A stretch of DNA of 64,000 bases from an uncultured bacterium. Lineage in GTDB: Bacteria > UBA8481. The stretch is from the NCBI GenBank assembly GCA_964499705.1, contig CAZCME010000003.1, forward strand, positions 1-64,000, read 5' to 3'. Position 1 is the first letter of the stretch; each line of letters opens with the position of its first letter. A model generated the notes under the pieces. It worked only from the letters and a program-made list of their open reading frames with translations. It was not told where the DNA came from and did no database searches. Below are positions 12,928-62,793 of this stretch, in pieces. A program made the translations under genes and the position numbers.

Positions 12928-12985
12928 CAGGCAGTAACAACTCGGAGGTTGCAAGGATGTCGACATATCGGAAAGGGCGTCGCAT

Positions 12986-14781: not shown

Positions 14782-15156
<375 letters not shown>

Positions 15157-31205: not shown

Positions 31206-36651
<5,446 letters not shown>

Positions 36652-36664
36652 GGCTAATAGTAAT

Positions 36665-37903: not shown

Positions 37904-37908
37904 GAAAG

Positions 37909-38099
37909 TTTTCCCACGAAGAAGTTCTTCTCATTAATGTATTGGATAGTAGTCGTAATAGTAGTGACTGGGGATATGTTGAAAAGAGAGTGAAGTCGTT
38001 CAGGGTGACGGAGCCTCATCGGGAAAACCCCATGAAGAACTCCTCGGCAAAGATTCCACACTCTCCACAATCGCTCTCTCTTTCCATGGCTTTTCCACG
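37909..38099. other. Probable oriC unwinding region (DnaA-trios plus tandem degenerate DnaA boxes)
   Basis: TAG TAG TCG TAA TAG TAG (37947-37964) adjoins TGGGGATAT/TGTTGAAAA (37969-37985). Further ...TCCAC(A/G) boxes at 38052-38099. Lies between dnaA and dnaN. Confidence 0.8.
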
Positions 38100-38131
38100 T
38101 GTTGTCGGAAATTCATGAACAGGGAGATTCT

Positions 38132-39466
38132 TCAACGCAGCGACGCCTTGATTTCCTGGAGCATGTTCTGCATGTGGCGGTCGCGCTCGAGGAGGTCCGT
38201 GATTTTCTTGCAGGAATGCAGGACGGTCGTGTGATCGCGACCGCCAAATTCCGTGCCGATGACGGGTAGTGACATGCCGGTGATTTCCCGGCAGATGTAC
38301 ATCGCGATCTGGCGCGGCAATGTCACGTCGGACGTGCGCCGCTTGCCCTTCAATTCCTGCGTCGTCACCTTGAAGTAGTCGGACACCGCCTTCTGGATCT
38401 GATCCACGCTGATGCGGGAATCGCGGCGGGTTTCCATGAGGTCCCGCAGGGCATCCTGGGTCTGCGCCAGGTCGATCCTGCGATTGGTGAAGGTCGCCAT
38501 GGCTCCCACGCGCATCAGGGCGCCCTCGAGCTCGCGGATGTTCGAACGGACACGCGTCGCGATGTACTCGATGCAGTCGTGAGGCACGTCGAGATCCGCT
38601 TCGTCCGCCTTCATCCTGAGGATCGCTATGCGCGTCTCGAGATTGGGAGGCTGGATGTCGGTGATGAGTCCCCACTCCAGGCGCGAGCGGAGACGATCGT
38701 CGAAGGTCGTCAGCTCGCGGGGAGTCCGGTCGGACGAGATGACGATCTGGCGGTTGGATTCATGGAGCTCGTTGAAGGTGTGGAAGAATTCCTCCTGCGA
38801 TCGCTCCTTGTTCAGGAGAAACTGGATGTCGTCGATGAGGAGAAGTTCCGCCTGGCGGTATTTCTTGTGAAACTGATCGATGCGCGAATCCTTCAAGGAA
38901 TTGATGAACTCGTTCGTGAACTGCTCCGCGGAACTGTAGAAGACCTTCGCGTCCGGCTTCATCTGCAGCACATGATGACCGATCGCCTGCATGAGATGGG
39001 TCTTGCCGAGCCCGACGCCGCCGTAGATGAAGAGCGGGTTGTAGATCTTCGACGGAGATTCGGCGACGGCCTTGCAGGCCGCGTGCGCGAACTGGTTCGA
39101 CGTGCCGACGACGAAGGAATCGAACGTGTAGAGCGGATTCAGAAAATCGGCGGCGGGCGACGTCGAAGGCCGCGACCTCGGTCCCCTCTGGGGACGAGGT
39201 TCCTGGCGCGTCTTGTTGCCCGCATTCTCCGGCTTGCAGCAGATCCGGACGGACACGGGATTGCCGTTGTGTTTCACGGCGCTCGAGACGATGCCTTCCT
39301 TGTAATGATCCTCGATCCAGTCCTTGTGGAAAAGTGTCGGCACCCAGAGAATGAGCGTGTTTTTCCGCTCCTCCACTTCCACCTTGCCGAACCAATCCTG
39401 GAACAAGTCCGCGTCGATTTTTGTTTTCAGTTCATCCTGGATTTGAGTCCAGATCCCCAATGACAT
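38132..39466 (-). CDS. dnaA: Chromosomal replication initiator DnaA
   Basis: YTFDSFV, YNPLFIYGGVGLGKTHL, DDIQF, RL.SR..WGL and FGGRDHTTV motifs. Confidence 0.99.
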   Translation of the reverse strand: MSLGIWTQIQDELKTKIDADLFQDWFGKVEVEERKNTLILWVPTLFHKDWIEDHYKEGIVSSAVKHNGNPVSVRICCKPENAGNKTRQEPRPQRGPRSRPSTSPAADFLNPLYTFDSFVVGTSNQFAHAACKAVAESPSKIYNPLFIYGGVGLGKTHLMQAIGHHVLQMKPDAKVFYSSAEQFTNEFINSLKDSRIDQFHKKYRQAELLLIDDIQFLLNKERSQEEFFHTFNELHESNRQIVISSDRTPRELTTFDDRLRSRLEWGLITDIQPPNLETRIAILRMKADEADLDVPHDCIEYIATRVRSNIRELEGALMRVGAMATFTNRRIDLAQTQDALRDLMETRRDSRISVDQIQKAVSDYFKVTTQELKGKRRTSDVTLPRQIAMYICREITGMSLPVIGTEFGGRDHTTVLHSCKKITDLLERDRHMQNMLQEIKASLR

Positions 39467-45809: not shown

Positions 45810-47825
45810 TCACTGGCCCAGACAATCACGGTAGCGCGTGTTCAAATCCGGAAGAAGCGCCTCCATCCGCGAGATCTGCCGCCGTGTCGCGCTGATCATT
45901 CCCTCATGGAATTCGATGTCGTCTGTGAGAAATTCCCGTTCACGAGCGCACTGCGATAGCAGGTCTTCCTGTGCCTGCCTGGCGGTTTCGTATTCCGCAT
46001 CCGCACTGCGGGTCGCGGCAGAGGCGGCATCCACGCGCGCCTGGTATCGCGCCGTTTCTTCATCTGATGCATAAGAGGCCGGGGGATTGGCCAATATATC
46101 GCGCTCCCTTTGCGCCGCGCGCCGCCAGGCATCACGCGCGTTCTCTAACGCGTCACGCGCCGCATCTTCATTGGTCTCGCACTGCGTGTTGAGCGCGTTC
46201 AGCTGCGCCTCGCTTGTCTGCTTTCCATCCTGATTCTCCGCAAGCAATCTCCGCTGCTCCGCGAGATCGGCTTCCGTCTGCCGGATTTCGTTCAGGATCG
46301 GCTGGCAGTGGCGCGCCCCGCCGCCGGCGCCAGTCGTGGCCAATCCGGTTCCTCCGCCTGGCCCGCTCGATCCCTCACCGCAATCGATCGAGCATGGATC
46401 TCCGCTCTCGAGCGCGTCGCGCTTCGCGCTCGCATCATCAAGGTGAAGTCCGCGGAACCAGGTTCGAATCCGCCCGATGGCACGGTTGATTTCGGTTCTT
46501 CCCGCGGCGCCCCTGCCAATCGTGACGTCATTGATTTCGTGCGCGAGTGAAGGGAGCGGCGACCGGACAGGTTCGGTGTTCCAGAGTCCGCCGTCAACCC
46601 ATGCCCCGTTCCGGCAGACTTCGATTTCCCTGCAATCGAACGTGATGTGTTCCAACGGTACGACGGCTCGCACGTTGACGTTAGCATGGGCTGCTCCCTG
46701 AGCCCAGCGATCACATGCATCCGCCAATCGCTGGCCCAGGCGGAGAGCGTTCGTGGCATATGCGGCCGGCAATTCGCCAGGCGATCCGGGGATATCGATA
46801 CCCGCGACGTCTCCCGCCACCACGCCTCCGACATCCGCCGCAGGGCCTCCCGTAACATCTCGTGCCGCAACTCCACCCGCGCCTTGGACGACGTTCCATG
46901 CGTTCACGACGTCTCCCAGCGCGGACGCCATGTTTCCGAGAGCTTCCCGCGTGGCGTCGTCGGCATGCTCGCCATACCCTACGATCGGCGTGATCTCGAT
47001 GGTGGGCGCTTCCACGGTCGGTGCGTCGAAGGCGCACGACTTGACGATCGTCTCGTTCTTCCAACGCCAGGCATCTTCCTCGCACCCGCCTTGGTTCACG
47101 ACGGTGCTGATATCGAGGAGAACCGTGATACCCGCCGCGAGCGTGAAGACACCTCCGCCTGACACCCCGCAATATTGCCCGCTTCCCAGCACGATTTCGC
47201 TTCCCGTGTCCGAAGAGTATGCGATCGCAGCTCCGGACGTGGCGCTGCTCATTCCGGCGGTGGGCTGGCCAGATGGGCGCGAAGTCGGTCCGACCGCCGC
47301 CGCGATCGGAGCGACGATCTTGGGCTGAGTTGAGGCTTCCTCTTCGGATTGAGGCGCGGGCCGACTGGTCGGAGCGGACGAAGACGTACTCATTCGAGCG
47401 GCGATCGCCGCGGCTTCAGGCGAAGAGGGCGGAGCCGTTGTTCCGTAGGCGATCGCTCCGGTTTTCGCCCTGGAACGCTCGGCAAGCCTTTTGGCATAGT
47501 CATAATAGCTGGTCTGCGGGCGATAGGTCGGCGTAACGCTGGATTGAAGACCCTTCAACACCGTGATGCTGATGCAGGGGCGAGAGACAGAAATCGTCTT
47601 GCGCGTGCCGGGCACCACGATGTCGCGCCGGATGAAATTATCCCCTTCGATGGTCACTGTGGCGGGATAGGCGGCCGCATTTGTGATGGTCGCGGCCGCG
47701 ATAAATATTTCTCCGGCAGCCGCATCGGCCGACTTGCTTTCCGCTCGAAGCGACGAACCATTGCATACTGCCACCGCCAGCAAAATCGCGCCCAAGATTT
47801 TTTCGGTTCCAGCAGGACTGCTCAT
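45810..47825 (-). CDS. Exported hypothetical protein, Cys-containing, with C-terminal coiled coil
   Basis: Hydrophobic N-terminus, Pro/Ser/Ala linker, paired Cys residues and a heptad-like C-terminus; AGGAGG RBS. Confidence 0.7.
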   Translation of the reverse strand: MSSPAGTEKILGAILLAVAVCNGSSLRAESKSADAAAGEIFIAAATITNAAAYPATVTIEGDNFIRRDIVVPGTRKTISVSRPCISITVLKGLQSSVTPTYRPQTSYYDYAKRLAERSRAKTGAIAYGTTAPPSSPEAAAIAARMSTSSSAPTSRPAPQSEEEASTQPKIVAPIAAAVGPTSRPSGQPTAGMSSATSGAAIAYSSDTGSEIVLGSGQYCGVSGGGVFTLAAGITVLLDISTVVNQGGCEEDAWRWKNETIVKSCAFDAPTVEAPTIEITPIVGYGEHADDATREALGNMASALGDVVNAWNVVQGAGGVAARDVTGGPAADVGGVVAGDVAGIDIPGSPGELPAAYATNALRLGQRLADACDRWAQGAAHANVNVRAVVPLEHITFDCREIEVCRNGAWVDGGLWNTEPVRSPLPSLAHEINDVTIGRGAAGRTEINRAIGRIRTWFRGLHLDDASAKRDALESGDPCSIDCGEGSSGPGGGTGLATTGAGGGARHCQPILNEIRQTEADLAEQRRLLAENQDGKQTSEAQLNALNTQCETNEDAARDALENARDAWRRAAQRERDILANPPASYASDEETARYQARVDAASAATRSADAEYETARQAQEDLLSQCAREREFLTDDIEFHEGMISATRRQISRMEALLPDLNTRYRDCLGQ

Positions 47826-47934
47826 TACCCCCTCCTAGATTGATTCATCATAACCCGCTTGCGATCAGAAAATGCATGCAAATCGCGGCGGAAACTTTGC
47901 TTTGCCGCGGGGATATTATAGAATCCGGCGGATC

Positions 47935-48435
47935 ATGAGCGCCGAAGATTGGGAAGACAAGAACGATCCCTGGCCCGATGCCGACGATGACGGCCCTGCC
48001 GCATCGAAAGCGTCGAAGAACCGGTACCGCCCCGTCGTGCTCCGCCCTTCGAAGGTGCGCGAGATCGTCCGGAAATCGTCAGGCAAGCGCGTCGCTTCCG
48101 ATTTTGTCGCGTTGCTCGATCAGATGGTTGTCATCGCGATCGAAAAGCTTTCGACCGTGCACGACGGCGGCACGAAAACGCTCTCGGCGCGGCTGCTCTC
48201 CACTTGCCCCGTCCGCATGACGTCGATCGCTCCCATCGGCGATTCTATGCTCCTGCGCCGCAGGAAGAAGAAAGTATCCCGCGCGGACAATTCGAAAGAC
48301 AAGGCGACGATCGTGCGGAAGGTCCAGCCGGTATCGAAATCGCGAACGGAGGCCGTCGGAGCGCCATCGGGCCGCAAGGCGAAGCCGCGGAGTTCCTCGA
48401 TCGGCACCGAGCAGGGAACGCTTTTCCCGGTCTGA
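47935..48435 (+). CDS. Candidate histone-fold protein with acidic N-tail and basic C-tail
   Basis: The core RPSKVREIVRKSSGKRVASDFVALLDQMVVIAIEKLSTVHDGGTKTLSARLL fits alpha1-L1-alpha2-L2-alpha3 spacing. C-terminus EQGTLFPV. Confidence 0.7.
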   Translation: MSAEDWEDKNDPWPDADDDGPAASKASKNRYRPVVLRPSKVREIVRKSSGKRVASDFVALLDQMVVIAIEKLSTVHDGGTKTLSARLLSTCPVRMTSIAPIGDSMLLRRRKKKVSRADNSKDKATIVRKVQPVSKSRTEAVGAPSGRKAKPRSSSIGTEQGTLFPV

Positions 48436-50321: not shown

Positions 50322-53300
50322 TCAGATATCGTCATCCATGGGCGTGCCTCCGCGCTTGCGGAAGGGCTTGTAACTCTTGATGAAGTCGATATCGCGTTTC
50401 CGCATCGCGTCGCGGACATCCTCCAGGGCCGCGAAATAATCGGATTCGGCCGGGGCGGACGCGAGAACGGTCTTCCGCTCGGCGTCCGTCAGCTTGTTCC
50501 AGACGGCGCTCACGGAAAAGAGGATTTCCTGCTGCTTCAGGAGCAATGCTTCCTTCTGCGCGGGATCGGCGGAAGCCTCGATCGCGTTCGCGAGCTCCTT
50601 CATGTTGGACGCGTTCGTGATGAGGCATTCCTTCAGCGATTGCTTCACGAAGCCTTCCATCTCCGCGATGTGCTTCTCGATGACGTGATTCATCGCGTCG
50701 TCGTGGTCGTCCAGTTTCCGCCCCAGTCGCTCCTCGAAGACTTCGCTCCAGGGTTTGCCCTGCTTCCTCATGTTCATCTCGCGGAAGAGACGGAGCTGCT
50801 CCGGCGTGAACCGGCCGCCGAGCTTCTCGGCCATCCCGACGAATTCGCCGTGGATGCCGCCGGTTTTCGCGAGATTGGCCTCGATCTGATCGAGCGTCAG
50901 GTCGTTGGCCATCTTCATTCCGGCGTCGGACTGGATGATGCGCGCGAAAAGGACGCGCAAGCCGTACTTCGCGAGCGATTTCGCGTAGTCCATCCGTTCG
51001 CCGCTGTGGGCGCCGACCATCTTCAGGTTGTCCATCACCATTTCGAGTCCCATCCAGGGCTCGAATTTCACGTGGCGATAGAGCTCGCTCTGGTACGTCA
51101 TGTCGTCGTTCATGTCGGCGTCCTTCGCGCGTCCGCCGAGCTTGTTCAAATAGTGGAGAAAGCGGAGCGCGCCCGTCGAGAGATAGCGCTCGGGATCGCT
51201 GAGGTCCCTCATGAGCGCGTCGAGCGTCCGCTTTCCCTCGGCGGCGACGGCCTCGGCCGTTTTCGGGTCCTTGATAAGCTCCAGGAGGCCCGCGACCGTG
51301 TGGCCCGCGGCGGTCAGGCGCGGCCGTTCGTCCGCGAAGCAATGGATGTCGAACTCCTCGGGCTCGAAGCCGGTCTTCCTCCTGAAATACTCGTCGTAAC
51401 CGCTCTTCACCCTGGCGCGGGTCGGGAGATCGACTCCTTCTTTCAGGATGATCGTGAAGTCGAGGTCGCTGGAGAGCCTCTTGTATTCGGGCCAGTCGGG
51501 GCGCGCTCCGGATCCGGTGTAGATGAAGCGCTCGACGTGGGGAGCGAGGCTGGGATTTTCCGCCAGGAATTGCCTCTGGGTGAATTCGAGGAGCTCGCGG
51601 CGGGCGGCGTCCAGCTTCAGCTCGATGTTCTTCGGAAGCTCCCCCTTTTTCTTGGCCTTCAGAAGAGCCGCCATCGGAAGTTTCCGAAAGAGCTCCGCGT
51701 GCGCCGCGATCCGGTGCTCGCCTTTCTTCCCGGAGAGGTCCGCATCGTATTCCTCCATGATCTCCCTGATCATCCGCTCGTTCAGGGGATTGAGATAGAG
51801 CTTCAGCTTTAGTTTCAGGCTCGCGATCAACTTCGCCGCGGTCGTAATGCCCAGCTCGTCCTTCAGCTTCGAATTCGAAGCGTCGGCGAGTTCCTGCTGC
51901 GCCTTCTGAAGCTGAGCGAGCGCGTCCATCGCCTGCCAGTATTCGCGCATCATGGTTCGCGCGGCCTGGAGCTTCTTCCAGGCCGGCACATTGACCTTCT
52001 CCGGGATATGCGCGTCGATTTTCCGCAGGAGATTGCGGGACGTCTTGTTCATGAGGGATCCCGGATCGTCCGTCTGGACCTGCTGGACATTCACGAGCGC
52101 ATTCGCGAGGAAATCCGCGTATTTTTCGTCCACGCCGAAGTATCCCATCAGGATTCCCTTCTGGATCGATTCCTGCTCCACCTGTTCCGCGGCGGCCCGC
52201 AGGATCTGCGTGGAGGCCGTTCGCAGTTTCTCCGGAGTCAGCTCGCCTTTCGTGAGCGACGAGAAGGGATTGATCCGGCCCCAGGCGAACTGGAGGAATC
52301 CGTTGAAGCCGTTCCACGACGAGAAGATCGCGCGGACATTCGCGAGGGAGACAGGAGCATTCCTGACGGCGGCCGGACTGATGTAGCGCGTGAAGAAGGC
52401 GGTGTAGAGGCCGCCATTCCCGAGCGAGACCCACGTGTTGATGCCGATCTCCTTCGCGTGCTCGTAGGAGAGATCGTTCGCGAGCCACGCGGACAGGCCT
52501 TTCGCCGCTTCCGGTTCGACGTTCTCCAGCTCGCGGGCCGTCGCGACCGCGCCGTCGAAATCCAGGACGGCGACGCGGTCGAGGAGCTGCTGCTTGAGGA
52601 TCTTCGGCAGGTTGCTTTTCGCCTGGATCGAGGAGACGCGGTGAAGGAGCGCGATCTTGAAGGCAAGCTGCTGCCGCTCGGACGGATCCTCCACCTTCGC
52701 TATCTCCGCATGCAGCATCTCCTCGTGCTGCGTCGTCCGGATCGCCCGATGCCGCTCGAGAAACGCCATGTAATCGGGATTGCGCTCCGCGAGAACGTCG
52801 TGGAGCTGGTAGTTCTGCGGGAGATGCTTCTGGAGATAGTCGAGATCCCAGTGGATCTTCAGGAGGCGTGGGCGAAAACCTTCCATCTCGTCGAGCTGAC
52901 CGCTGCGTTCCGCGAGGTAATCCTCCATCGAGTCATAGTTGCCGCGCGCCGCCTGGCAGTACGTCTTCCACGTGCCGAGCGGATCGAGCATGCGCTTCAG
53001 GAGCGGATCGCCGCCGGTCGCGGAACGGCCTTCGCGCATGTTGACCGTGATGCGCATTTCCTTCCAGACAAGGCGGCCGTGCTTTGCGGCGATGCGGAAT
53101 TCGAAATCGAGGAGCTGATCGTAATCGTCGGCCATGCAGGCGGCGAATCGAAGGAGCCCTCCCGAGGTCACCTCGTGAAACATCCGGTTGTCATCCAGGG
53201 CGATGAGCTTTTTCTCGTCGAACGGCGCGGCGTATTCCTTCGTGAGCCAGTCTCCGAGCTGCCTCGTGCCGGCGGCGTCGAGTTTGCGGACAGCTTCGAG

Positions 53301-55253
53301 CGCTTCCAGGCGGGCGAGCGTGGACTTTCGGACATCCTTGATCTGGCGGTCCGTCTGCTCATGCAGCGTCTCGACGATCCCGCCGGCGCCGGCGGCGTTG
53401 AAGAGGCGGGCAAGATTGTCGACGAGCGTCGTCCACATGGTGTTGAAGATCGCCATGAGATATTGCGTGCCGGTTATCGCGCGCTGGGCGGTGCGCTTCA
53501 TGAATTCGTCGTGGTTCGGGAGCCGGTCGTTCTCCTTCTTCGCCGCCTTCAGGCCTTCGCCATAGCAGTCGCGCGCGTCCAGGGCGTCCGAGGCGAGCGC
53601 CATTTCGCGGAGGAGGTGAATGCGGCCCTCATCTGCATGGACATTTTTCAGCGCGACGCGGAGGCGGTCCAGTTCCGGCGCGGAAAAACCGGGATCCGCC
53701 GAGGCGCGGGCCTTCTGATGTTCCGCGATCGTCATCTCCAGCCGCAGGATCTCCATGCGGTTGACATTCGACCAGACGGCGAGGATGTGCTGGAGGTTTT
53801 TCAGATACCGGTCGTAGTACTTGCGGAGGCGCATGTAATCAGAGTCCTCGACGAAGCGGTAACTTTTTTTCCGCATCTCGTCGAGCGTTCGCGCGGCGGC
53901 CCTGGCGAGACAATCGGCTTCTTCCGCCAACGCCGCGCGGATCGCGGCGATGCCGGCGTCGGGGAGCGACCCATAGTTCGCGGCCACCTGCTCGAAATAC
54001 CACTTCTCCTTGGAGCGGATCTCCTCGTCCTTGCCGAGCACCTCCTTGTCGAAGTCCGCGACATACTCCCGAAATACTTTCGCGTATTCCTCCGGCGACT
54101 GAGCGGCGGTCTTCTCCGGCGGCTTCCGCCGCGCCGCCGCGCTCAATTCCTCCCCGAGCTTCAAGTGTTCCGCGCGGATGCCGCCGAGAGCGGTGCCTTT
54201 GCCGGCGATCGAGGGGAGCTTCAGGAGATCGCATTTCCAGAACTCGGGCAGGGCGGTATCGCGCGTGTAGAAAATGCGGGGCAGAAACATCCCGGCTTCG
54301 TCGAACATTCCTCCGGAAGTCGTGGCTGAAACGACGAGCGTGCGCGACGGCACTTCCTTCCACGTCGCGTTCTGATAGTTGCGCCACGTGGAAGAATCGT
54401 TCGGGTCCGCGAGATTTCTCGTGATATCCGTGCCGCTTTGCATGGCCTGGCGCTTCGCTTCCTCGACATCCTTGACGCCGGAGAGCGTCGTGATGTCCGG
54501 TTCGTACCGGATCCCGCTGTATCCGTAGTTCTCGAAGGGTTTGGCTTTCAAGGTTGCCGCGAATTCAATGGAGGGAGCGGCGGTCGCGGACGAATAAAAT
54601 CCGAAGCCGTTTGCGATGCCGAAGGTCGTAGAGCCGTCCGGCCTGTAGTCATCCGGTTTCCATTCCTGGAAACCGCTCCAGTTGAAGCTGATATTCTTTC
54701 CGATCCATGCAGAAGAACCGGGAGAAGTGCGCGTCGATGTGCCGGTGGCGCCGCCGCTCACGATGATGGGATCGCCCGTCCGGATCTCCTCCGGCAGCTC
54801 CAGGTGGATCGTGTACTGGTCGACCTTGGTCCCGGGGGAGCGATCCGAGCCCTGCCAGTTGCGGGTGTAGGTTCCCGTGAAGGCGGCCCGCTCCCCACGG
54901 ACGACGCTCCAGTTCCACGTCAGCTGCTCCGTGCCCGTCATGTCCCTGTAATTGTTCGTGTGCGATTTGGCGTATGAACCCGTCTGGAGAATGTCATGAC
55001 CGGTGTCGTAGGCCGTGCCGCCCCGCTCGTCCATCGCCGCGTCGAACCAGGAGAGATTGACGATCGCGCGGGAGAGACGGAACGGAGGATTCGTATCGGC
55101 GCTTGTCGTGACGGAATCGGATTTCGCGAGCGATTCTCTCAGCCATGATGTGAAATCCTTTTCCACGGCATGCACTTGAGTGGAAGAGAAGAAGATCTGC
55201 ATCGCCCCGGCCGCGACGAAGGAGATCGCCCTGCAGTGCGAACGCGTTCTCAC
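50322..55253 (-). CDS. ~1,640-aa exported protein with a C-terminal nucleotidyltransferase-like domain
   Basis: The GTG at 55253 overlaps the upstream stop (GTGA). Signal-like ...AISFVAAGAMQIFFSSTQVHA. YTGSGAR...SDLDF...DIHCF motif. Confidence 0.7.
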   Translation of the reverse strand: MRTRSHCRAISFVAAGAMQIFFSSTQVHAVEKDFTSWLRESLAKSDSVTTSADTNPPFRLSRAIVNLSWFDAAMDERGGTAYDTGHDILQTGSYAKSHTNNYRDMTGTEQLTWNWSVVRGERAAFTGTYTRNWQGSDRSPGTKVDQYTIHLELPEEIRTGDPIIVSGGATGTSTRTSPGSSAWIGKNISFNWSGFQEWKPDDYRPDGSTTFGIANGFGFYSSATAAPSIEFAATLKAKPFENYGYSGIRYEPDITTLSGVKDVEEAKRQAMQSGTDITRNLADPNDSSTWRNYQNATWKEVPSRTLVVSATTSGGMFDEAGMFLPRIFYTRDTALPEFWKCDLLKLPSIAGKGTALGGIRAEHLKLGEELSAAARRKPPEKTAAQSPEEYAKVFREYVADFDKEVLGKDEEIRSKEKWYFEQVAANYGSLPDAGIAAIRAALAEEADCLARAAARTLDEMRKKSYRFVEDSDYMRLRKYYDRYLKNLQHILAVWSNVNRMEILRLEMTIAEHQKARASADPGFSAPELDRLRVALKNVHADEGRIHLLREMALASDALDARDCYGEGLKAAKKENDRLPNHDEFMKRTAQRAITGTQYLMAIFNTMWTTLVDNLARLFNAAGAGGIVETLHEQTDRQIKDVRKSTLARLEALEAVRKLDAAGTRQLGDWLTKEYAAPFDEKKLIALDDNRMFHEVTSGGLLRFAACMADDYDQLLDFEFRIAAKHGRLVWKEMRITVNMREGRSATGGDPLLKRMLDPLGTWKTYCQAARGNYDSMEDYLAERSGQLDEMEGFRPRLLKIHWDLDYLQKHLPQNYQLHDVLAERNPDYMAFLERHRAIRTTQHEEMLHAEIAKVEDPSERQQLAFKIALLHRVSSIQAKSNLPKILKQQLLDRVAVLDFDGAVATARELENVEPEAAKGLSAWLANDLSYEHAKEIGINTWVSLGNGGLYTAFFTRYISPAAVRNAPVSLANVRAIFSSWNGFNGFLQFAWGRINPFSSLTKGELTPEKLRTASTQILRAAAEQVEQESIQKGILMGYFGVDEKYADFLANALVNVQQVQTDDPGSLMNKTSRNLLRKIDAHIPEKVNVPAWKKLQAARTMMREYWQAMDALAQLQKAQQELADASNSKLKDELGITTAAKLIASLKLKLKLYLNPLNERMIREIMEEYDADLSGKKGEHRIAAHAELFRKLPMAALLKAKKKGELPKNIELKLDAARRELLEFTQRQFLAENPSLAPHVERFIYTGSGARPDWPEYKRLSSDLDFTIILKEGVDLPTRARVKSGYDEYFRRKTGFEPEEFDIHCFADERPRLTAAGHTVAGLLELIKDPKTAEAVAAEGKRTLDALMRDLSDPERYLSTGALRFLHYLNKLGGRAKDADMNDDMTYQSELYRHVKFEPWMGLEMVMDNLKMVGAHSGERMDYAKSLAKYGLRVLFARIIQSDAGMKMANDLTLDQIEANLAKTGGIHGEFVGMAEKLGGRFTPEQLRLFREMNMRKQGKPWSEVFEERLGRKLDDHDDAMNHVIEKHIAEMEGFVKQSLKECLITNASNMKELANAIEASADPAQKEALLLKQQEILFSVSAVWNKLTDAERKTVLASAPAESDYFAALEDVRDAMRKRDIDFIKSYKPFRKRGGTPMDDDI

Positions 55254-57250
55254 GGCGAGCAGATTTTCATCCGGCACGTTCCCTTGCCGGAACAGGGGCA
55301 TTCGCCCGGTTCGAAGAGGCAGCCTGTTTCGTCGGAATGCGTGAGGCATTGAGAGGGCAGGGCTTCGTCCTCGGGATTCCGGCCTTCATCCACCGGCGGC
55401 TGAACCTCGATTGTTTCTCCCGGCGATGTCGCGCCGGCCGTTGCGGAGGAAGACGAAGCCGTGTCGATCGGCGCGGGCTTCGTGTCCGGATGTTCGACGG
55501 CGGGGATCGGCAGATCGTAGATCGATGAAGCGGGAAGGAGAACGACGCGGTCGAAGAGGGCGTTTCCATTGTAGGAAGAGAAGGCAAGCCCCGTGATCCG
55601 GTCTCCGGGATTCATCTTCATGCCGTCCACGAGATCGCGCCGGATCCTGTACCATCGGCGTGGAGAGAGGCCCGGCGTCGTTCCGGCCATGGACCAGTTG
55701 AAGCCGTTGTATTCCTTATCCGCGTCGAAACCCCAGCGGTTGCCCCAGGAACCGCTGTTCTGGATCTGGAGCTGGAGATCGGCGCTTGAATCCATGAGAA
55801 AGAGATCGAACTCGATGAAGCGGAAATCGCCCGCGCCGTCACCGACCCTGCCGAGTTCCATGTTGAAGTGGTTGTTACCGGTGGATCGGAAAGCGGCGGC
55901 TCCGGTCGTGCGATGAATGACGTCGGATTCGGGAATGCCGCTGTACCAGTAGTAGGGGCTGATGTCGTCATCGATGACGATCTTTCCGTTTGTCGCCATC
56001 GGAGTGATTGGCGGCGTCGCCGTCGGCCCGCCAGTCGAAGGTATGCCGGGCGAGACCACCTCCGAAGCCAGGCCGGCGACAAGCTCGATGATGAGATTAC
56101 GAAGCCAGTCGTCGTTCCCTTGGCCGGATGATCCCTGGACAATGGGGCGACCGGATCCGTCTTCGCCTCGCGTGATCGTGATCGTGATCGGGCCGAGGTT
56201 GGTGTTCCAGGTGAATGTGCCGTTCGTGGTTCCGGCCCTGGTTGGCAGTGGGAATCCCGGGGTGGATACGATGACGCCCGGCCCGGCCGCGTTGCCGACC
56301 GGCGGGATTTCGCCGACGATCCGAAGATCCTGGAACTCGACGTCCGCCTCGATGATGAAGAAGCCGACGTTGACGATCGCGGGCAGTGAAGCGAGCGCCG
56401 GGACGCCTCCGGCCGCGATTTCCACGCCGTCGAGCGTGGCGCGCATGCGCGCGCCGTCGATCTCCAGCGCGAGCTGATACCATTCGTCGACCTTGATATC
56501 GCGGCCGGCATACTTCCATTCCGGAGACGGATAGCCTTGTTCGATCACATCCAGCCATCCGCCGACTCCAGCGTGATCCTGCCGCTCGCTCAATTGAAAT
56601 CGGAAATGGGAATGGCTCGCATTCGTGGCGGAAGGATCGATCACGGCGAGGCCAGCTCCTCCGTAGTCGACATGATTGCGGAATTTCATCCGCGCCGAGA
56701 TCGTGTAAGTTTTTCCGACCCTGCGCGGGAGCAGGAAGAAGCTGTAACCCTCATCGTTCGGGATCGCGCCGCCGATGGAATTTGCGGCGGATGACCAGGT
56801 TCCAGCGACCGCTCGCGTGTGAACTTCCCGCCCTCCCGACATGTCGCCTCCGGCCGAAGGGGCAGGCACCGCGGGTGCGGCGGATCCGACCGTCAACCGG
56901 CAGCGATCCATCACGTTGTATCCGCCAGTCGGCCAGTCGTAGAGGACGCGGACCTCGTATTCGCCGTCGGGAACGCCGTTGAATTCGAACGTGCCGCTCG
57001 TCTTTCCTCCGGTATAAAACCATTGGCCGTAATTCGTGTTCGGTTCGGAGGCTTTGACGAGAGTGATCCAATCCTGGGCATGACCCGGCATCCCGAAATA
57101 CTCGATCAGGATATTTTCGCCCGCAGCTATTCCGGTTAGTGACGTGCGTATATGAAGTGACGAAATGCCGCTGGATGGGTTGGCGATCACAGGAATGAGG
57201 ATGAATGCGAACAACAAAAAAACCGAATATCGATTTTGTCGCAAGCCCAT
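55250..57250 (-). CDS. Exported modular beta-sandwich/lectin-like protein
   Basis: Signal peptide, an Ig-like DWI...GEYEVR domain, a DUF1080/LamG-like jelly roll, a CBM-like domain, Pro/Thr linkers and a Cys-rich tail. Confidence 0.7.
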   Translation of the reverse strand: MGLRQNRYSVFLLFAFILIPVIANPSSGISSLHIRTSLTGIAAGENILIEYFGMPGHAQDWITLVKASEPNTNYGQWFYTGGKTSGTFEFNGVPDGEYEVRVLYDWPTGGYNVMDRCRLTVGSAAPAVPAPSAGGDMSGGREVHTRAVAGTWSSAANSIGGAIPNDEGYSFFLLPRRVGKTYTISARMKFRNHVDYGGAGLAVIDPSATNASHSHFRFQLSERQDHAGVGGWLDVIEQGYPSPEWKYAGRDIKVDEWYQLALEIDGARMRATLDGVEIAAGGVPALASLPAIVNVGFFIIEADVEFQDLRIVGEIPPVGNAAGPGVIVSTPGFPLPTRAGTTNGTFTWNTNLGPITITITRGEDGSGRPIVQGSSGQGNDDWLRNLIIELVAGLASEVVSPGIPSTGGPTATPPITPMATNGKIVIDDDISPYYWYSGIPESDVIHRTTGAAAFRSTGNNHFNMELGRVGDGAGDFRFIEFDLFLMDSSADLQLQIQNSGSWGNRWGFDADKEYNGFNWSMAGTTPGLSPRRWYRIRRDLVDGMKMNPGDRITGLAFSSYNGNALFDRVVLLPASSIYDLPIPAVEHPDTKPAPIDTASSSSATAGATSPGETIEVQPPVDEGRNPEDEALPSQCLTHSDETGCLFEPGECPCSGKGTCRMKICSP

Positions 57251-57474
57251 GGCCGGCTCACTCTTTCCCCAAAGGATGTTCCAGATTAAATGGCAGCACG
57301 AAGGATAGCGAATGAGCGATTCGGAAGCAAGAATGACATGCAGAGCCGTTCCATGCTCATTCATGGAACGAAAAAAACGAACAGTACCATGTGGTACACA
57401 GTGATTGTATTTCTTAATACACAACGAATTTTTACTAAGAAATTTTACATTGCGTCAAGTAACTATTAGACAAC

Positions 57475-60400
57475 GTGAGAGCGCGTATTGTCGAAAGTCG
57501 TGATCGTCCAAGGTTTAAAGCGAGTTATGCGTCGGCAATATTTTTGCAGTTCGTCATGGTCTCTTCCGCGTGGGCAACAACATGGTTCGTCAACGATACA
57601 TCCACCGTTGGCGACAGCTTCACAACCAGTGTCGGCGCCGCAGGGAATACAGGTGTGACTCCAAATTCACCCAAACGCCATGTCCAGGAGGTCATGGTTC
57701 TTTGGAAAGATGGCGATATCGTCTATCTTGATGCCGGAATCCACAATGAAGGCGCTCAACTTTTGGTGACTTGTGATTCGTTGACGATTCAGGGCGTTGA
57801 TTCCGAGGCCACCATTATCGATTTCTACCCTATGACCGACATCTCCCGGTATATCAAAGTAAAGTCCTGTACCGGTGTCACACTAAGAAATTTCGCAGTG
57901 ATGAGAGGGTATTTCGGCGTTCTTTTATCGGACGCCGACACGTGCACGATATCGGGAGTGCGCTGTGACAGTAACTCCGTCAGCGGCTTCCGTGTCGAAT
58001 CAGGATCCTGCGATAACGAATTCAGAGGCAACTCGGCCAGTGGAAACCCGACGGCCGGGTTTCAATTCGTTTCAAGTTCGATTTCGATTTTGTTTCTCAA
58101 GCAGCCTTCTATGAGAAATAGCATCGTTGGCAACAGAGCGACGGGTAACGGGGATGGTTTCAACCTCTCAAGTGCCCGCAACTTGTTCTTCGGCAATATT
58201 TCTGCGGGCAACCAAGGTATGGGATTCAACCTGGCCGCTGAGAGCCATAGTCAATTTGCGGGAAACACTATTACGAATAATGGTTCTCACGGATTCCAGC
58301 TGGTAAGCACGACAGAGATTGTTCTTCTCCAAAACACTTTCGATTCCAATGGCGGCTATGCCGTATCGCTCGCCGGTGGTCAGAATAACGGCACTATCAC
58401 GCGAAACATATTTCAAGGTTCTGCAAACGGGCCCGATTCCATCCTGTTTGGTTCGACGAATATCTCGTACCGGATCCAACGCAATTGGTGGGGAACCACC
58501 GATAGCATTTCAATATCGTGGAAGATACACGGTACGGATCGCGGAATTCTCAACTATACACCTTTCCTGCTTCACGTTCCGGACTCCATTCCGGGCGTTG
58601 ACACTATTGCTCCTCGGGCGCCAGACAGTGTGGCGGCGCAGGCGGTCGATTCCTCGCATATCGCTATCACCTGGTCGCCCATGGATGGTCATGAAGAGGT
58701 GTCGTCATTTCCGGTTAACCCGGGAGGATATGTGATTTACAGGTCACTCACATCGGACACCTCGCAGTGGACAGAGTGCGGAAGCGCATCTTCAGAATTC
58801 CAGACCTTCACGGATTCGGGCCTAGCCGCGGGCGGCGAATATTTCTATCGAGTTTCTTCCATGGACGCCGGGAATGCGATTCCGAATCGAAGTTTTTATT
58901 CCGATTCCATCGCGCATTCTTTCACACACGGCGCGTCGGTGGTTCATTCCAGTCCTCGGCTGATTCCGCATGCCATTGGTCGCAGCGGAGCAGAATCGGC
59001 AATTTTGGCGTTTACGGTGAGTGGCGCGAATTCGGACACGCTGATTTCGTTGGCCGTGCGGCTGTCGGGAAATATCCCTCCGTCGGACATAGCAACCGTC
59101 AGGCTCTATCGTGACAACGATCGTTCCGCTCGGTATGAGGAGAATACGGACAGTATGATCGCCGAGTTGGTCTGCAGCGATGCTCTGATATATCGGAAAA
59201 CAAATCTTTCAGTTCGAATCGATGAAGCGGATTCCTTCCTTGTAACGATCAATATCGAGGACACCGCGCATTTTGCGGACACATTCGAAGTAGGCATGGC
59301 GCCGGGTGATGTCTATCTTGCCTTGGCGGAAACCGGCCCGGGTACTGGTTGGTTTCTCAAAGGCGCCTGGACGATTCACGCGGGGATCGATTCGTCCGGC
59401 CCCAACGTCTGGTACATTAACGATACGTCTTTGACGGGCGATTCGTTCACCGTTTCGGCCGGGAGCTCGACAAACAACGGTTTGACTCGTCAATCCCCTA
59501 TGCGACGGTTGCGCGATCTCAATGGAAGTTTAACGCCAGGCGACACGATCATGTTGGACCGAGGTATATTCGAGGAACCGCAATCGTTCCAAATCGAGAC
59601 GCATCAATTATGCATCATGGGCAGGGATTCGGCGTCCACGGTGGTGTCCTTCGGGAATTCTTCCGATGGTATTTCGGGAACGAATAGACATCGGATCACG
59701 GTGCAGGACCTGAAAATTACGGCATCGAATAAGGCAGTGCGGTTCAACAATGTCGACTCCTCATCTCTACTGCGACTTCGTCTGGACGGCAATCAACTAG
59801 GAATAGAAGTGGCGTCCGGGTCCTGTTCGAATCTCATAGAGGGATGCTACCTGGAAAATAATGCAGCTGGAATGATTGAGGTTTTCAGCGGCGCGGAGGA
59901 CAACTGCGTCATGAATAATGTGATTGTCACAGCTGGCAGCAATTCTTATTCCGGAATCTACCTCGATATGGGTTGCCACCGCAGCCACATATCGGGAAAC
60001 ACAATCACCGGTCCCGGCAGGATGGGACTCTATGTCGCCGAAGGCCGAGACTATCGGATCATGGGTAATACCATAATTGAAGCGAATGAATATGGCCTGT
60101 ACACGTACGGGTGTTCGAATGCAGTCTTCGCCCATAACCTGTTTCGGGCATGCGGAAGTGAAAACGTCATATATCTTGGACTGTACGAGGGACGTAATAA
60201 CGTCTATTACCAAAACACCTTTGATGCCAATTCAGGATATTTGTTCTATATCGCCGACTGGGGAGGAACACCTGGAGGTGATTCGATATATAAGAACAAT
60301 TTCAACGGAGCTTTGCATGACACGATGAAGATCATGTACTATGAGTCAACTCAGCCTTTTGATGTTTCGCGAAACTGGTGGGGAACGACCGAGAGCAGTT

Positions 60401-62793
60401 TAATCCGACGCGGAATCTCCGGCCCCGGAGCCGCTTCGGTTCGCTTTGCACCCTTTCGTCTGGGGCCGGTGAATACAGCCGAAGGGGCCGACACGATCGC
60501 GCCACGAGCTCCTGATACGGTGGCGTTGACGGCCATCGATTCCACCCGAATTCAAGTAAGCTGGTCGAAGTCGTCCACTCACGAAGAGTCGACGGGCGCG
60601 CCCCTTGGCCTCGCCGGATACCGAATATACCGGGGTCGATTGAACGATACTTCCGCGCCGCTTCTTTATGGCGCTGCCTCTTCCGAGTCCGTGATGTTCA
60701 CCGACTCAAACCGTTCCGGATCCCATCAATACTATTATCGAATATCCGCCGTCGATGGAGCTACGCCTTATCCGAATGAAAGCTACTACTCAGAATCGAT
60801 TTGCGTGACCGGAATGGGTCCGACTATTTCCTTGTGCTCATCGGGCATGATCCCATCCCTTCTTAAGCGCGCGGCGGTATCGGAAACCATGATCTTGGCA
60901 CTTTCTATTCAGGGAGCTTCCGAAGACACGCTTTTGTCCGTCGGAATTCATGTCGCCGGTCGTCCCGCCGATATAGATGCGATTTCCTTCTACCGGGACA
61001 TCAATCGAAATGCCCGGTTCGATTCAGGAGTCGATGCATGGATCTCGCGTCTCACCCATGTCATTGATTCCAGATACCACGCATCGATGGTCGAGACATT
61101 ATTGTCCGGCGGAGACTCGTTTTTCTTCACCATGAGGATTGCGGATACCGCATTATTCTCTGATACGTTCCATTGCTTTCTGGGTCCGGACGCGGTCGTC
61201 ACCGGCAGGGCAGGAACCGGCCCGCCCCTTCCCTTGTCGGTCGACGGGATCTGGAACATCGATCCGGAAATATTCGCTGCGGGGCCGAACGTCTGGTATC
61301 TCAATGATGAGAGCGATCTCGGCGACTCTTTTACGGCTGCGACCGGAGCTTCCTGGTACAATGGTTTGACGATTCAGACTCCCAGGCGATATCTCTTCGA
61401 GGTGATTCCATTCCTTTCCGCGGGAGACACGATCTTGATCGACGCTGGAACGTACCTGGGTCCACCCCATGCTACAGAGGCGCAAATCAGCAACATATGC
61501 ATTTCCGGCAAAGATTCCTCTTCGACGATGCTGAGTTACCTCAGACTTACCGGTACGGCGCTCACGCTGAAGGATTTTTCGGTCAATGGAATCAGCGGGG
61601 GGAATGCCGGCATTCATCTGAATGGAGTGAACAACTCGCTCATCACGCGTATTCGCTCGGAATCCAACATCAATGGATTCCTGCTTGATTGTCAGTCGTC
61701 GGGCAACATACTTCGAGACAATTACGCCACCGGAAACATTCATGGTTTTCGGGCGGACAATGCCGGCGCCAATCTGTTCCAGGGCAATGTAGCTCGCGCA
61801 AACCGTGGCTCGGGATTTCATTGCTACTTCACTTCCAACGATAGATTTGTCGGAAACGTGTCCATGGAAAATGACAGCGACGGCTTCCACATCAATCAGA
61901 CTCAACAATCCTGCTTTGCCGCGAACTATTGCGCTCGAAACGGCCTGAACGGCTTTCAGACGGCCAATGTTTCCATGGGAAATCTGATTGCCCAGAATAC
62001 CATGGAAGCCAATGGTCGATATGCGTTCGCTTTTTCCGGAGTCTGCTCCGGCACGACTCTGGCGAAGAACGGCATTAGTACGTCAACGCCAAATCCAGAT
62101 TCGGGAATCTGGAATGATTTTCCATCAACGGGCATGTGGACAGGTGGAGAGGTTCGGTATCGGCGAAATTGGTTTGGAAGCACGAACGCAGATTCGGTGA
62201 GTCATCTTATTTGGGGACCGGCTCGCCAAGCGGTTGTTCATGCTCCGTTTCGACTCGGTGAAATCGATTCCTCACAGGAAGCGGACACCGTTGCTCCGCA
62301 AGCGCCCGATACCGTGATGGCGACCACGATCGATTCGTCGCATATATGCGTCACCTGGTCCATCGCCCATGCGTCTGAGGAACAAGAAACATCCATAAAT
62401 CTTGCCGGATACCGAGTTTACCGTTCGACGACGATGAATCCATCTCACTGGATTCTCATCTGCGAAACGGCCGGACGCGAATTCACGGACTCGTATCTGG
62501 GAGCCTTGTCGACCCACAACTATCGAATTACCGCGGTGGACGCGCATTCGCCATTTCCCAATGAGTCCTTCTTTTCCGATTCCATCGCTTCAGCGGCCAT
62601 GCTGGCATGGACCACCATACCATCTCACCAAACCATCTCCCACGATTTGCTCATGGATTTTATTTCAATCGTGAATATGCCAGGATCGTATAACCCTGCA
62701 TATGATGTCGGTAGAAATGGCCCGGATGGCATTCTCAACGAGGAGGATCTGTTTGAAATTGGGCGACGATACGACGAGAGATCGCTTCCATGA
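57475..62793 (+). CDS. 1,772-aa exported protein: three beta-helix (NosD/CASH-like) + FN3 modules and a dockerin/EF-hand-like tail
   Basis: W(F/Y)xND.S..GDSFT, RNW(W/F)G(T/S)T and DT(I/V)AP.APD each occur three times. Asn/Gly-rich coils; signal peptide ending AWA. Confidence 0.85.
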   Translation: MRARIVESRDRPRFKASYASAIFLQFVMVSSAWATTWFVNDTSTVGDSFTTSVGAAGNTGVTPNSPKRHVQEVMVLWKDGDIVYLDAGIHNEGAQLLVTCDSLTIQGVDSEATIIDFYPMTDISRYIKVKSCTGVTLRNFAVMRGYFGVLLSDADTCTISGVRCDSNSVSGFRVESGSCDNEFRGNSASGNPTAGFQFVSSSISILFLKQPSMRNSIVGNRATGNGDGFNLSSARNLFFGNISAGNQGMGFNLAAESHSQFAGNTITNNGSHGFQLVSTTEIVLLQNTFDSNGGYAVSLAGGQNNGTITRNIFQGSANGPDSILFGSTNISYRIQRNWWGTTDSISISWKIHGTDRGILNYTPFLLHVPDSIPGVDTIAPRAPDSVAAQAVDSSHIAITWSPMDGHEEVSSFPVNPGGYVIYRSLTSDTSQWTECGSASSEFQTFTDSGLAAGGEYFYRVSSMDAGNAIPNRSFYSDSIAHSFTHGASVVHSSPRLIPHAIGRSGAESAILAFTVSGANSDTLISLAVRLSGNIPPSDIATVRLYRDNDRSARYEENTDSMIAELVCSDALIYRKTNLSVRIDEADSFLVTINIEDTAHFADTFEVGMAPGDVYLALAETGPGTGWFLKGAWTIHAGIDSSGPNVWYINDTSLTGDSFTVSAGSSTNNGLTRQSPMRRLRDLNGSLTPGDTIMLDRGIFEEPQSFQIETHQLCIMGRDSASTVVSFGNSSDGISGTNRHRITVQDLKITASNKAVRFNNVDSSSLLRLRLDGNQLGIEVASGSCSNLIEGCYLENNAAGMIEVFSGAEDNCVMNNVIVTAGSNSYSGIYLDMGCHRSHISGNTITGPGRMGLYVAEGRDYRIMGNTIIEANEYGLYTYGCSNAVFAHNLFRACGSENVIYLGLYEGRNNVYYQNTFDANSGYLFYIADWGGTPGGDSIYKNNFNGALHDTMKIMYYESTQPFDVSRNWWGTTESSLIRRGISGPGAASVRFAPFRLGPVNTAEGADTIAPRAPDTVALTAIDSTRIQVSWSKSSTHEESTGAPLGLAGYRIYRGRLNDTSAPLLYGAASSESVMFTDSNRSGSHQYYYRISAVDGATPYPNESYYSESICVTGMGPTISLCSSGMIPSLLKRAAVSETMILALSIQGASEDTLLSVGIHVAGRPADIDAISFYRDINRNARFDSGVDAWISRLTHVIDSRYHASMVETLLSGGDSFFFTMRIADTALFSDTFHCFLGPDAVVTGRAGTGPPLPLSVDGIWNIDPEIFAAGPNVWYLNDESDLGDSFTAATGASWYNGLTIQTPRRYLFEVIPFLSAGDTILIDAGTYLGPPHATEAQISNICISGKDSSSTMLSYLRLTGTALTLKDFSVNGISGGNAGIHLNGVNNSLITRIRSESNINGFLLDCQSSGNILRDNYATGNIHGFRADNAGANLFQGNVARANRGSGFHCYFTSNDRFVGNVSMENDSDGFHINQTQQSCFAANYCARNGLNGFQTANVSMGNLIAQNTMEANGRYAFAFSGVCSGTTLAKNGISTSTPNPDSGIWNDFPSTGMWTGGEVRYRRNWFGSTNADSVSHLIWGPARQAVVHAPFRLGEIDSSQEADTVAPQAPDTVMATTIDSSHICVTWSIAHASEEQETSINLAGYRVYRSTTMNPSHWILICETAGREFTDSYLGALSTHNYRITAVDAHSPFPNESFFSDSIASAAMLAWTTIPSHQTISHDLLMDFISIVNMPGSYNPAYDVGRNGPDGILNEEDLFEIGRRYDERSLP

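Follow-up and report, generated by a model that had tools for sequence, protein, structure and literature searches.

Introduction

AMPylation by enzymes of the nucleotidyltransferase (NTase) fold is known in the cytoplasmic regulator family GlnE/GlnD, drug-resistance enzymes, MNT antitoxins, and one injected effector, DrrA. We analyzed a 64,000-nucleotide stretch of DNA from an uncultured bacterium (lineage UBA8481; contig CAZCME010000003.1, positions 1 to 64,000 of the forward strand; hereafter the window), in which a gene for a 1,643-aa protein, here called gene 2, lies on the minus strand directly behind a gene for a 666-aa protein, gene 1. The gene 2 family, its export signal, and its architecture are absent from all libraries searched, and its catalytic module is of a known kind. 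We tentatively read gene 2 as belonging to a rare family of exported giants with a patchy distribution, whose members carry an active nucleoside monophosphate (NMP) transferase of the DrrA/GlnE/ANT type and may serve as secreted effectors or toxins using the nucleoside triphosphate (NTP) of a target cell. The analysis establishes the gene structure, the family, its conservation, and the predicted folds; export, catalysis, the acceptor, and action in a target cell are inferences. An exported giant family with this catalytic module would broaden the known delivery routes for nucleotidyl-transferring enzymes. The finding concerns uncultured environmental bacteria, and nothing ties it to disease.

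The closest described systems share the catalytic layout with gene 2 and differ from it in their setting. DrrA/SidM (PDB 6yx5, 3l0i), a 647-aa AMPylase effector of Legionella pneumophila, combines an NTase core and an inactive HEPN-like helical bundle within a larger multidomain protein that leaves its producer, as we propose for gene 2, and both carry a G-x(n)-D-x-D signature. According to passages in PMC3710099, DrrA is injected by a type IV system and adenylylates a tyrosine of host Rab with its NTase-HEPN module. However, DrrA has guanine nucleotide exchange factor and lipid-binding domains and no Sec signal, whereas the 1,643-aa gene 2 protein has a Sec-type signal and a variable domain at its N-terminus, followed by a helical body of 850 aa without relatives; searches of PDB sequences detected no sequence similarity between the two. 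GlnE (PDB 3k7d, 1v4a), which acts on a tyrosine hydroxyl of its target, is the best structural match and has the same arrangement of an NTase with a helical, substrate-binding domain. Passages in PMC3710099 describe it as transferring AMP. Yet GlnE carries two tandem NTase modules and is a housekeeping regulator in the cytoplasm, whereas the gene 2 protein is rare, predicted to be exported, and has a single module, and no Pfam GlnE model matches gene 2 or its relatives.

The drug-resistance enzymes ANT(3'')(9), AAD(9), and ANT(4') (PDB 7uy4, 6sxj, 4ebj) likewise pair an NTase with a helical bundle in a unit of similar size, but they are cytoplasmic, drug-acting proteins of ∼250 aa that lack a signal peptide or a giant N-terminal extension, and we found no sequence match to them. 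The MNT-HEPN (MntA-HepT) modules contain the same two folds and provide the only marginal sequence hit (see below); in the abstract of PMC7641770, MNT is described as adenylylating a tyrosine of its HEPN partner. These modules, however, consist of two small cytoplasmic genes, with a HEPN that is an Rx4-6H RNase, whereas in gene 2 the two domains are fused and follow a signal-like N-terminus, and the bundle contains no conserved His. Finally, in single-chain AB toxins of the CNF1 and PMT type, the N-terminal part binds, a helical central part serves entry, and the C-terminal part is the enzyme. The order of parts in gene 2 (a variable N-terminus, a helical middle with a hydrophobic conserved segment, and a C-terminal enzyme) and the lack of an immunity gene are the same, but no sequence or fold match to these toxins was seen, and the likeness is one of layout only.

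Results

The C-Terminal Region of Gene 2 Is Predicted to Be a GlnE/DrrA/ANT-Type Nucleotidyltransferase

In the list of open reading frames (ORFs) of the window, the two genes correspond to minus-strand frames at 50322–55349 and 55250–57424. The genes and the C-terminal parts of gene 2 are as follows.

50322..55253, minus strand: gene 2, 1,643 aa, predicted exported giant protein; GTG start, stop codon at 50322–50324 (ORF and translation).
55250..57250, minus strand: gene 1, 666 aa from the ATG at 57250, predicted exported lectin-like protein and lineage-specific neighbor (ORF; three relatives only).
51087..51644, minus strand: predicted Pol-beta-type NTase core of gene 2, aa ∼1204–1389 (AlphaFold2 pLDDT 89; the top Foldseek and VIA-align matches are NTases).
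50607..51062, minus strand: HEPN-like (KNTase_C-type) helical bundle of gene 2, aa ∼1398–1549 (VIA-align matches to HEPN domains; K1429, R1433, and K1497 invariant).
50325..50606, minus strand: C-terminal helices of gene 2, aa 1550–1643 (AlphaFold2 secondary structure; pLDDT <50 in the last ∼12 residues).

An interpretation made from the DNA letters alone (the sequence-only reading) had picked out three segments as signs of a Pol-beta-type NTase, and we find all three where it placed them: FIYTGSGAR at aa 1243 (51527–51501), SSDLDFTII at aa 1261 (51473–51447), and FDIHCF at aa 1301 (51353–51336). AlphaFold2 modeled the last 454 aa of gene 2 (aa 1190–1643) with a predicted local distance difference test score (pLDDT) of 89.1 and a predicted template modeling score (pTM) of 0.88. 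In model numbering, the elements run in the order helix 19–43, strand 51–57, short helix 58–61, strand 75–81, helix 87–105, and strand 114–120, with the GS pair at the turn between strand 51–57 and helix 58–61, DLD on strand 75–81, and FADE ending strand 114–120.

Structural comparison of this model against 48,161 chains with VIA-align returned NTases in the first five ranks.

Rank 1: 3k7d_B, GlnE adenylylation domain; Z 10.8, 265 residues aligned, root-mean-square deviation 5.5.
Rank 2: 7uy4_B, ANT(3'')(9); Z 9.9, 227 residues aligned.
Rank 3: 6yx5_B, DrrA; Z 9.5, 269 residues aligned, model residues 1–416.
Rank 4: 1v4a_A, GlnE N-terminal domain; Z 9.4, 263 residues aligned.
Rank 5: 6sxj_A, AAD(9); Z 9.1, 222 residues aligned.

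The two-domain chains of ANT and AAD(9) were matched end to end, with the NTase core followed directly by a four-helix HEPN-like bundle; ANT(4') scored Z 6.3. Model residues ∼209–360 separately match HEPN domains (2jpu, Z 9.0; 2hsb, Z 8.5). The top Foldseek rows were AAD(9), Hailong HalB, CdnC, ANT, and DrrA, with probabilities of up to 1.00.

Sequence comparison gave fainter traces of the same relationship. A profile of the family searched against PDB sequences placed the MNT-type nucleotidyltransferase chain 9xbd_E first, aligned exactly on GS...SDxDF, with a marginal E-value of 0.035, and the Pfam model Polbeta (PF18765) matched 2 of 23 family members below its cut-off (best E 0.034). The single C-terminal domain searched against the PDB by sequence gave nothing below E 0.34. 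For the GlnE, GlnD_UR_UTase, and aminoglycoside NTase families there was no match in Pfam or NCBIfam and no PDB sequence hit at E <0.03, and gene 2 as a whole gave nothing above noise in Pfam, NCBIfam, PADLOC, or PHROGs. We are highly confident that the C-terminal module adopts an NTase fold, as the sequence-only reading had proposed and as the AlphaFold2 model and the leading VIA-align and Foldseek matches indicate. The module is best described, on the strength of the predicted structure, as a GlnE/DrrA/ANT-type NTase outside all of their sequence families.

The wider placement proposed earlier, among CD-NTases, MNT/AbiEii toxins, and class I cyclases, holds at the level of the Pol-beta superfamily and shifts within it: the closest structures are the adenylyltransferases GlnE, ANT, and DrrA (Z 9.1–10.8) and not cyclases or CD-NTases, the chains of the latter reaching only Z 5.5–6.1 and matching over the core only. 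This bears on a different enzymatic role, that of a synthase of nucleotide signals or oligonucleotides (of the CD-NTase, OAS, or Hailong HalB kind) joining nucleotides to each other with no foreign acceptor. HalB, CdnC, CdnG, OAS, and cGLR do occur among the Foldseek and VIA-align matches (HalB Z 7.5, OAS2 Z 6.2, CdnD02 Z 6.1, CdnE Z 5.9), but GlnE, ANT, and DrrA surpass them in both score and coverage, and the HEPN-like second domain is, in passages of PMC3710099, the hallmark of the adenylyltransferase group. No PADLOC model matches, and there is no known use for an exported second-messenger synthase; we regard such a role as very improbable.

The Predicted Metal- and NTP-Binding Residues Are the Most Conserved Positions of the Module

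Conservation was counted in a jackhmmer alignment from which the query copy and two duplicate rows had been dropped, with the rows covering a column as its denominator. The motif positions on gene 2 are listed here.

51510..51515, minus strand: G1247-S1248, the hG[GS] motif; G in 36/36 and S in 32/36 distinct relatives.
51459..51467, minus strand: D1263-L-D1265 (DxD); both Asp in 36/36 distinct relatives, on model strand 75–81.
51330..51332, minus strand: D1308 (in FADERP), likely third catalytic carboxylate; Asp in 35/36 with one Asn, at the end of model strand 114–120.

Conservation of GS and DxD among homologs, on which the sequence-only reading had staked its case, is thus nearly complete. 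Because the motif is invariant across the family and falls on the strand-turn-helix and the next strand of the predicted NTase core, its occurrence is more than chance. The pattern as first proposed, hG[S/G]...DxD followed by a third Asp, requires one correction: the third carboxylate had been sought in FDIHCF, but D1302 of that segment is Asp in 23 and Glu in 9 of 36 relatives, and D1308 is the better candidate, with a presumed place in the active site. Outside the motif, Y1357 (35/35), K1429 (34/34), R1433 (34/34), and K1497 (35/35) are kept in every relative that covers them.

No His is conserved at ≥60% in aa 1395–1560 of the family alignment, and the HEPN-like bundle therefore lacks the Rx4-6H RNase motif. 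This fits the published inactivity of HEPN domains fused to NTases (GlnE/GlnD, aminoglycoside NTases, and DrrA), which are typically inactive and serve in substrate binding or regulation according to passages in PMC3710099.

Conservation also speaks to whether the module is an enzyme at all, or whether gene 2 encodes a non-catalytic structural giant of the cell surface or periplasm, whose NTase-like module serves for binding or as a scaffold. Most of gene 2 is a helical scaffold without an enzymatic signature and no NTase sequence model reaches threshold, both of which would suit such a role. However, the residues expected to contact metal and NTP are the most conserved positions of the domain in relatives down to ∼25% identity, the pattern of an active enzyme, and a purely structural protein therefore appears quite improbable to us. 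We consider it probable that the module is catalytically active as an NMP transferase to a hydroxyl acceptor. In the mechanism that we envisage, the C-terminal enzyme would be a Pol-beta core with a catalytically dead HEPN-like bundle, laid out as in GlnE, the aminoglycoside nucleotidyltransferases, and DrrA; D1263, D1265, and D1308 would hold two Mg2+ ions; G1247-S1248 would bind the NTP together with K1429, R1433, and K1497 of the bundle; and an NMP, most likely AMP, would be moved to a hydroxyl of a protein or small molecule.

A Signal-Like N-Terminus Precedes a Variable Domain and a Conserved Helical Body

The remainder of gene 2 is divided as follows.

55167..55253, minus strand: signal-like N-terminus, ∼aa 1–29, consisting of MRTRSHCR, a hydrophobic stretch, and VHA before VEKD; the cleavage site is a prediction.
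54249..55166, minus strand: variable N-terminal domain, aa 30–335; no Pfam match and, among proteins of 903–2,876 aa, no relatives except itself.
51684..54248, minus strand: conserved all-helical body, aa 336–1190; AlphaFold2 model from 22 sequences, pLDDT 74.7, only helices.
52029..52433, minus strand: most conserved segment of gene 2, aa 941–1075, rich in aromatic residues and Gly; includes GNGGLYTAFF, NPF, and GYFGVDEKYADFLAN.

The signal-like N-terminus that had been read from the start at 55253 is present in the sequence, and by a simple hydropathy rule a signal-like N-terminal hydrophobic segment is found in 19/19 distinct relatives of at least 1,500 aa (in three of these the segment comes after an over-long called or ORF-derived N-terminus). 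Export of the gene 2 protein is thus, in our judgment, likely.

The domain behind the signal evolves rapidly. Its 306 residues (aa 30–335) are 21%, 13%, and 12% identical to those of three full-length relatives, compared with 40–82% in the other regions, and phmmer alignments begin only at aa 334–337 in the three full-length close relatives and at aa ∼400–680 in distant relatives of 1,600–2,100 aa. Among 5.8 billion proteins, none of 903–2,876 aa apart from gene 2 itself shares the gene 2 N-terminus, and the ESM Atlas gave no usable match with the N-terminal domain and no usable lead with the whole protein (scores ≤0.80). The sequence-only reading had suggested a search for homologs with the same N-terminus and exchanged C-termini; what we observe is the reverse. 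Polymorphic toxins combine a conserved N-terminal trafficking region with variable C-terminal toxin tips, whereas here variation is confined to the first 335 aa and conservation to what follows, and the family is therefore not of the polymorphic toxin kind; it differs from such systems also in that no immunity gene lies downstream of gene 2 and that the downstream genes vary by locus.

The helical stalk proposed earlier is confirmed by the all-helical model of aa 336–1190. Foldseek found nothing for the body at E ≤0.001 (best E 0.045), and VIA-align returned generic helical bundles only (Z ≤9.7). Within the body, aa 941–1075 are 81.5% identical to the closest relative, P0004, the highest value of seven gene 2 regions, and overlap the most hydrophobic 100-aa block (aa 901–1000). 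AlphaFold2 gives pLDDT <50 across aa 955–1069, the only long part of gene 2 that it cannot place, and no classical transmembrane helix was found in the area of aa 901–1000 and 941–1075. That this segment is membrane-active is a guess. The complete architecture would start with a signal peptide, followed by the fast-evolving N-terminal domain (∼300 aa), the conserved helical body (∼850 aa), and the two-domain C-terminal enzyme. In our proposal, binding would fall to the variable N-terminus, with the helical body serving as a scaffold or entry device; the body, being large and conserved, is a candidate new entry device.

A Rare and Patchy Family, and Where Its Members May Act

Among 1.84 billion representative proteins, 32 are related to the last 454 aa of gene 2 at E ≤0.001. 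These 32 representative proteins are homologous to gene 2 over aa ∼335–1643, and all relatives keep the C-terminal module. The closest, P0004, is 71% identical. With gene 2 as query, the gene turned up in 1/5 genomes of its own phylum and in 2/146 genomes of the phylum of locus L002; by their source names, one relative belongs to Candidatus Brocadiia and one to Candidatus Margulisbacteria. A scan of metagenome loci used an alignment of 12 sequences, and a scan of genome contigs with narrow patterns yielded one locus only. Gene 2 is single copy in its own genome. In topical literature searches, we found no title or abstract beginning that describes such a family, and no paper contains the record names of three relatives; supplementary files were outside the scope of this search.

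A secreted effector or toxin is the most likely role, given that the bulk of the protein would lie outside the cytoplasm, that NTPs are scarce there, and that the gene is rare and patchy across phyla; the gene 2 protein would then act inside another cell. Several points weigh against this reading. The C-terminal fold is a prediction built on a 23-sequence alignment, the Foldseek E-values are weak (best E 8.6e-3), the VIA-align documentation puts a Z of ∼10 not far above background, and in Pfam and NCBIfam no NTase-family sequence model reaches threshold for gene 2. Secretion past the inner membrane is unsupported, with neither linked secretion-system genes nor an immunity gene, and the helical body matches no known translocation domain in Foldseek or VIA-align. 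The protein could act in the periplasm or on the cell surface. A variable N-terminus on a conserved remainder fits an AB-type toxin, but a surface protein exposed to diversifying pressure would fit just as well. The listing of sequencing runs contained no RNA run with the locus. Finally, the G+C content at third codon positions (GC3) is 0.82 in gene 2, 0.845 in rpoC, and 0.72 in gene 1; the composition of gene 2 is therefore host-like, and the gene is no recent import here.

Some of these points would be expected of an enzyme that stays in the envelope of its producer and, in the periplasm or at the surface, nucleotidylylates an envelope component of the same cell or a small molecule coming in, or moves a phospho-alcohol onto such an acceptor from a nucleotide-activated donor. 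Signal-like N-termini occur throughout the family, gene 2 has neither an immunity gene nor a linked secretion system, its composition is host-like, and a transporter or porin lies directly downstream at two loci (an MFS transporter in the window and an OprD-type porin in locus L024). Extracellular drug inactivation of the ANT kind would be one example, with ANT(3'')(9) and AAD(9) within the five best structural matches. However, no supply of NTPs is known in the periplasm. A housekeeping role sits poorly with presence in 1/5 and 2/146 related genomes and with the very variable N-terminus, and drug modification would not need a 1,200-aa helical extension. An envelope-resident enzyme is accordingly unlikely in our assessment.

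Secretion into a target cell, our preferred reading, may be taken further as a speculative proposal that we hold with considerable doubt. The family could be a new class of Sec-exported, self-delivering single-chain toxins, in which the hypervariable N-terminus would pick the target, the body with aa 941–1075 would insert in its membrane, and the DrrA/GlnE-like AMPylase would enter the cytosol and use the victim's ATP on an essential protein. If true, the family would provide the first AMPylase toxin of the NTase class that is Sec-dependent and needs no injection machine, and its producers would be uncultured groundwater bacteria from several phyla.

Gene 1 Is a Coupled Neighbor in This Lineage

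Gene 1 ends where gene 2 begins. Its parts and the junction are the following.

57182..57250, minus strand: signal-like N-terminus of gene 1, ∼aa 1–23, hydropathy peak at aa 5–14; aligns with the N-terminus of relative P0039; the cleavage site is a prediction.
56402..56716, minus strand: concanavalin-A-like (jelly-roll) region of gene 1, aa 179–283; Laminin_G_3 at E 0.0018 and 3keto-disac_hyd at E 0.02, under the curated cut-offs.
55253..55348, minus strand: Cys-rich tail of gene 1; six Cys in the last 32 aa, five aligned with Cys of P0039.
55250..55253, minus strand: GTGA overlap between the gene 1 stop and the gene 2 start (sequence; bridged by contigs of runs X1 and X7).

The GTG with which gene 2 starts at 55253 runs into the TGA stop codon of gene 1 (55250–55252), and the two genes share the 4 nt GTGA; the sequence surrounding 55250 is TCGCCGTGAGAACG. 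The public gene-caller record of gene 2, P0003, uses the GTG at 55253, and relatives align from this codon onward. The alternative start, an ATG at 55349, would lengthen the protein by 32 aa that contain no hydrophobic segment, and would extend the overlap with gene 1 to 100 nt; relatives and P0003 favor the GTG. A contig of run X1 crosses the junction (54824–56439) with 0 differences, and one of run X7, from a different study, does so (53643–55856) with 167 differences in 2,214 bases, representing a strain ∼92% identical in which gene 1 likewise accompanies gene 2. Because both contigs bridge the junction, the two-gene unit is not an assembly artifact, and the arrangement deduced from the letters alone, with products of 666 and 1,643 aa, is confirmed. 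All compared runs are contigs, and coverage by X7 at 90% likeness stops at ∼55856; the lack of cover for parts of gene 1 upstream of this point is not evidence of their absence.

For gene 1, we prefer the longer, signal-bearing call, as the alignment with P0039 already starts upstream of Met 54, the internal Met chosen by the gene caller; a purine-rich sequence, GGGGAAAGAG, lies 11–20 nt upstream of the ATG at 57250. The hydrophobic N-terminus and the Cys-rich end agree with the earlier description of this protein. Among 5.8 billion proteins, gene 1 has only three relatives, the closest being P0039 (47% identical), which matches Laminin_G_3 at E 1.2e-4 and 3keto-disac_hyd at E 1.4e-5, likewise under cut-off.

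The coupling of an exported lectin-like protein to gene 2 had suggested a binary toxin, a special case of the effector reading in which gene 1 would bind target glycans and deliver the gene 2 NTase, with the GTGA coupling fixing their ratio. The 4-nt overlap is real, both products have signal-like N-termini, the junction is retained in the ∼92%-identical strain from another study, and gene 1 relatives contain F5/8 type C carbohydrate-binding domains. In addition, P0004 and P0039 each derive from a contig with a length of 19,621 bases, so probably from one and the same contig, on which the two would be linked. These observations are offset by the family as a whole: no relative of gene 1 at E <1 occurs in the ORFs or six-frame translations of the loci that hold gene 2 homologs, seven of which contain the complete gene with both flanks (L002, L004, L006, L009, L010, L011, and L024), and two 53%-identical relatives of the same layout adjoin a Schlafen/AlbA_2 regulator (L002) or kdpE and a porin (L024) instead. 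Hence, in contrast to known binary toxins, the enzymatic and binding components do not co-occur across the gene 2 family. GC3 is also lower in gene 1 (0.72) than in gene 2 (0.82). A predicted complex of mature gene 1 with gene 2 aa 30–340 scored 0.00, in a run without controls and with the partner's own fold uncertain, and favors neither side. The binary toxin with a lectin as delivery partner is not supported, gene 1 being confined to very close relatives, and we judge it improbable. Since gene 1 has only three relatives and none at the loci of gene 2 homologs, we regard it as a lineage-specific companion and not a general partner, that is, as a predicted exported lectin-like protein coupled to gene 2 only in this lineage. 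The motif read from the raw sequence was therefore upheld by fold and conservation, while the binary-toxin account built on it was not.

Neighborhoods of Gene 2 Homologs

The neighboring genes differ at every homologous locus, and no partner and no immunity-like gene is conserved across the loci examined. The neighbors are listed by locus.

L002: Schlafen/AlbA_2 regulator and MazG, beside a 53%-identical relative of the same length and layout.
L004: unrelated exported and unknown ORFs.
L006: papain-like peptidase.
L009 and L011: PPIase and TPR proteins.
L010: other giant ORFs.
L024: kdpABCDE and OprD-type porin, beside a 53%-identical relative of the same length and layout.

In L004, a 562-aa ORF at 255–1943 (plus strand) carries a signal-like N-terminus and shares 4 nt with the start of the giant homolog. 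Unrelated to gene 1 in sequence, it is an independent second example of an exported gene coupled upstream. The OprD-type porin of L024 (12819–14756, plus strand) starts at the stop of the giant homolog and is followed by a DSP-PTPase (PF22785), a Pfam family named for polymorphic toxin systems. The giant ORFs of L010, at 2–6613 and 11539–17265 (plus strand), encode 2,204 aa without a Pfam match and 1,909 aa with FlgD_ig and Big_13, respectively.

Genomic Setting of the Window

No small immunity gene follows gene 2 in the window, as had been noted from the sequence; the next gene, for an MFS transporter, starts 73 nt downstream. The window is chromosomal, carrying rpoB and rpoC (rpoB-rpoC at 15321–23836) and the replication-origin cluster dnaA-dnaN-recF-gyrB-gyrA (31206–39466). 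With 1,644 aa, the rpoC product is longer than usual. Neither gene 1 nor gene 2 shows similarity to rpoB or rpoC, which are the window's other giant ORFs. Divergent from gene 1 lies a gene (57475–62793, plus strand) whose 1,772-aa product contains NosD/Beta_helix repeats and fn3; its GC3 of 0.57, compared with 0.82–0.85 in gene 2 and rpoC, makes it look recently acquired. Two further ORFs of the window, at 45810–47825 (minus strand, 671 aa) and 47872–48435 (plus strand, 187 aa), have no Pfam match.

In the genome to which the window belongs, we found an Omp85 match and six secretin matches, which point to a diderm genome with possible routes beyond the periplasm. One of the six secretin-domain matches (G000:C1:487832–488317, plus strand, locus L015) falls within an open frame that, at 3,392 aa, far exceeds the usual length of a secretin.

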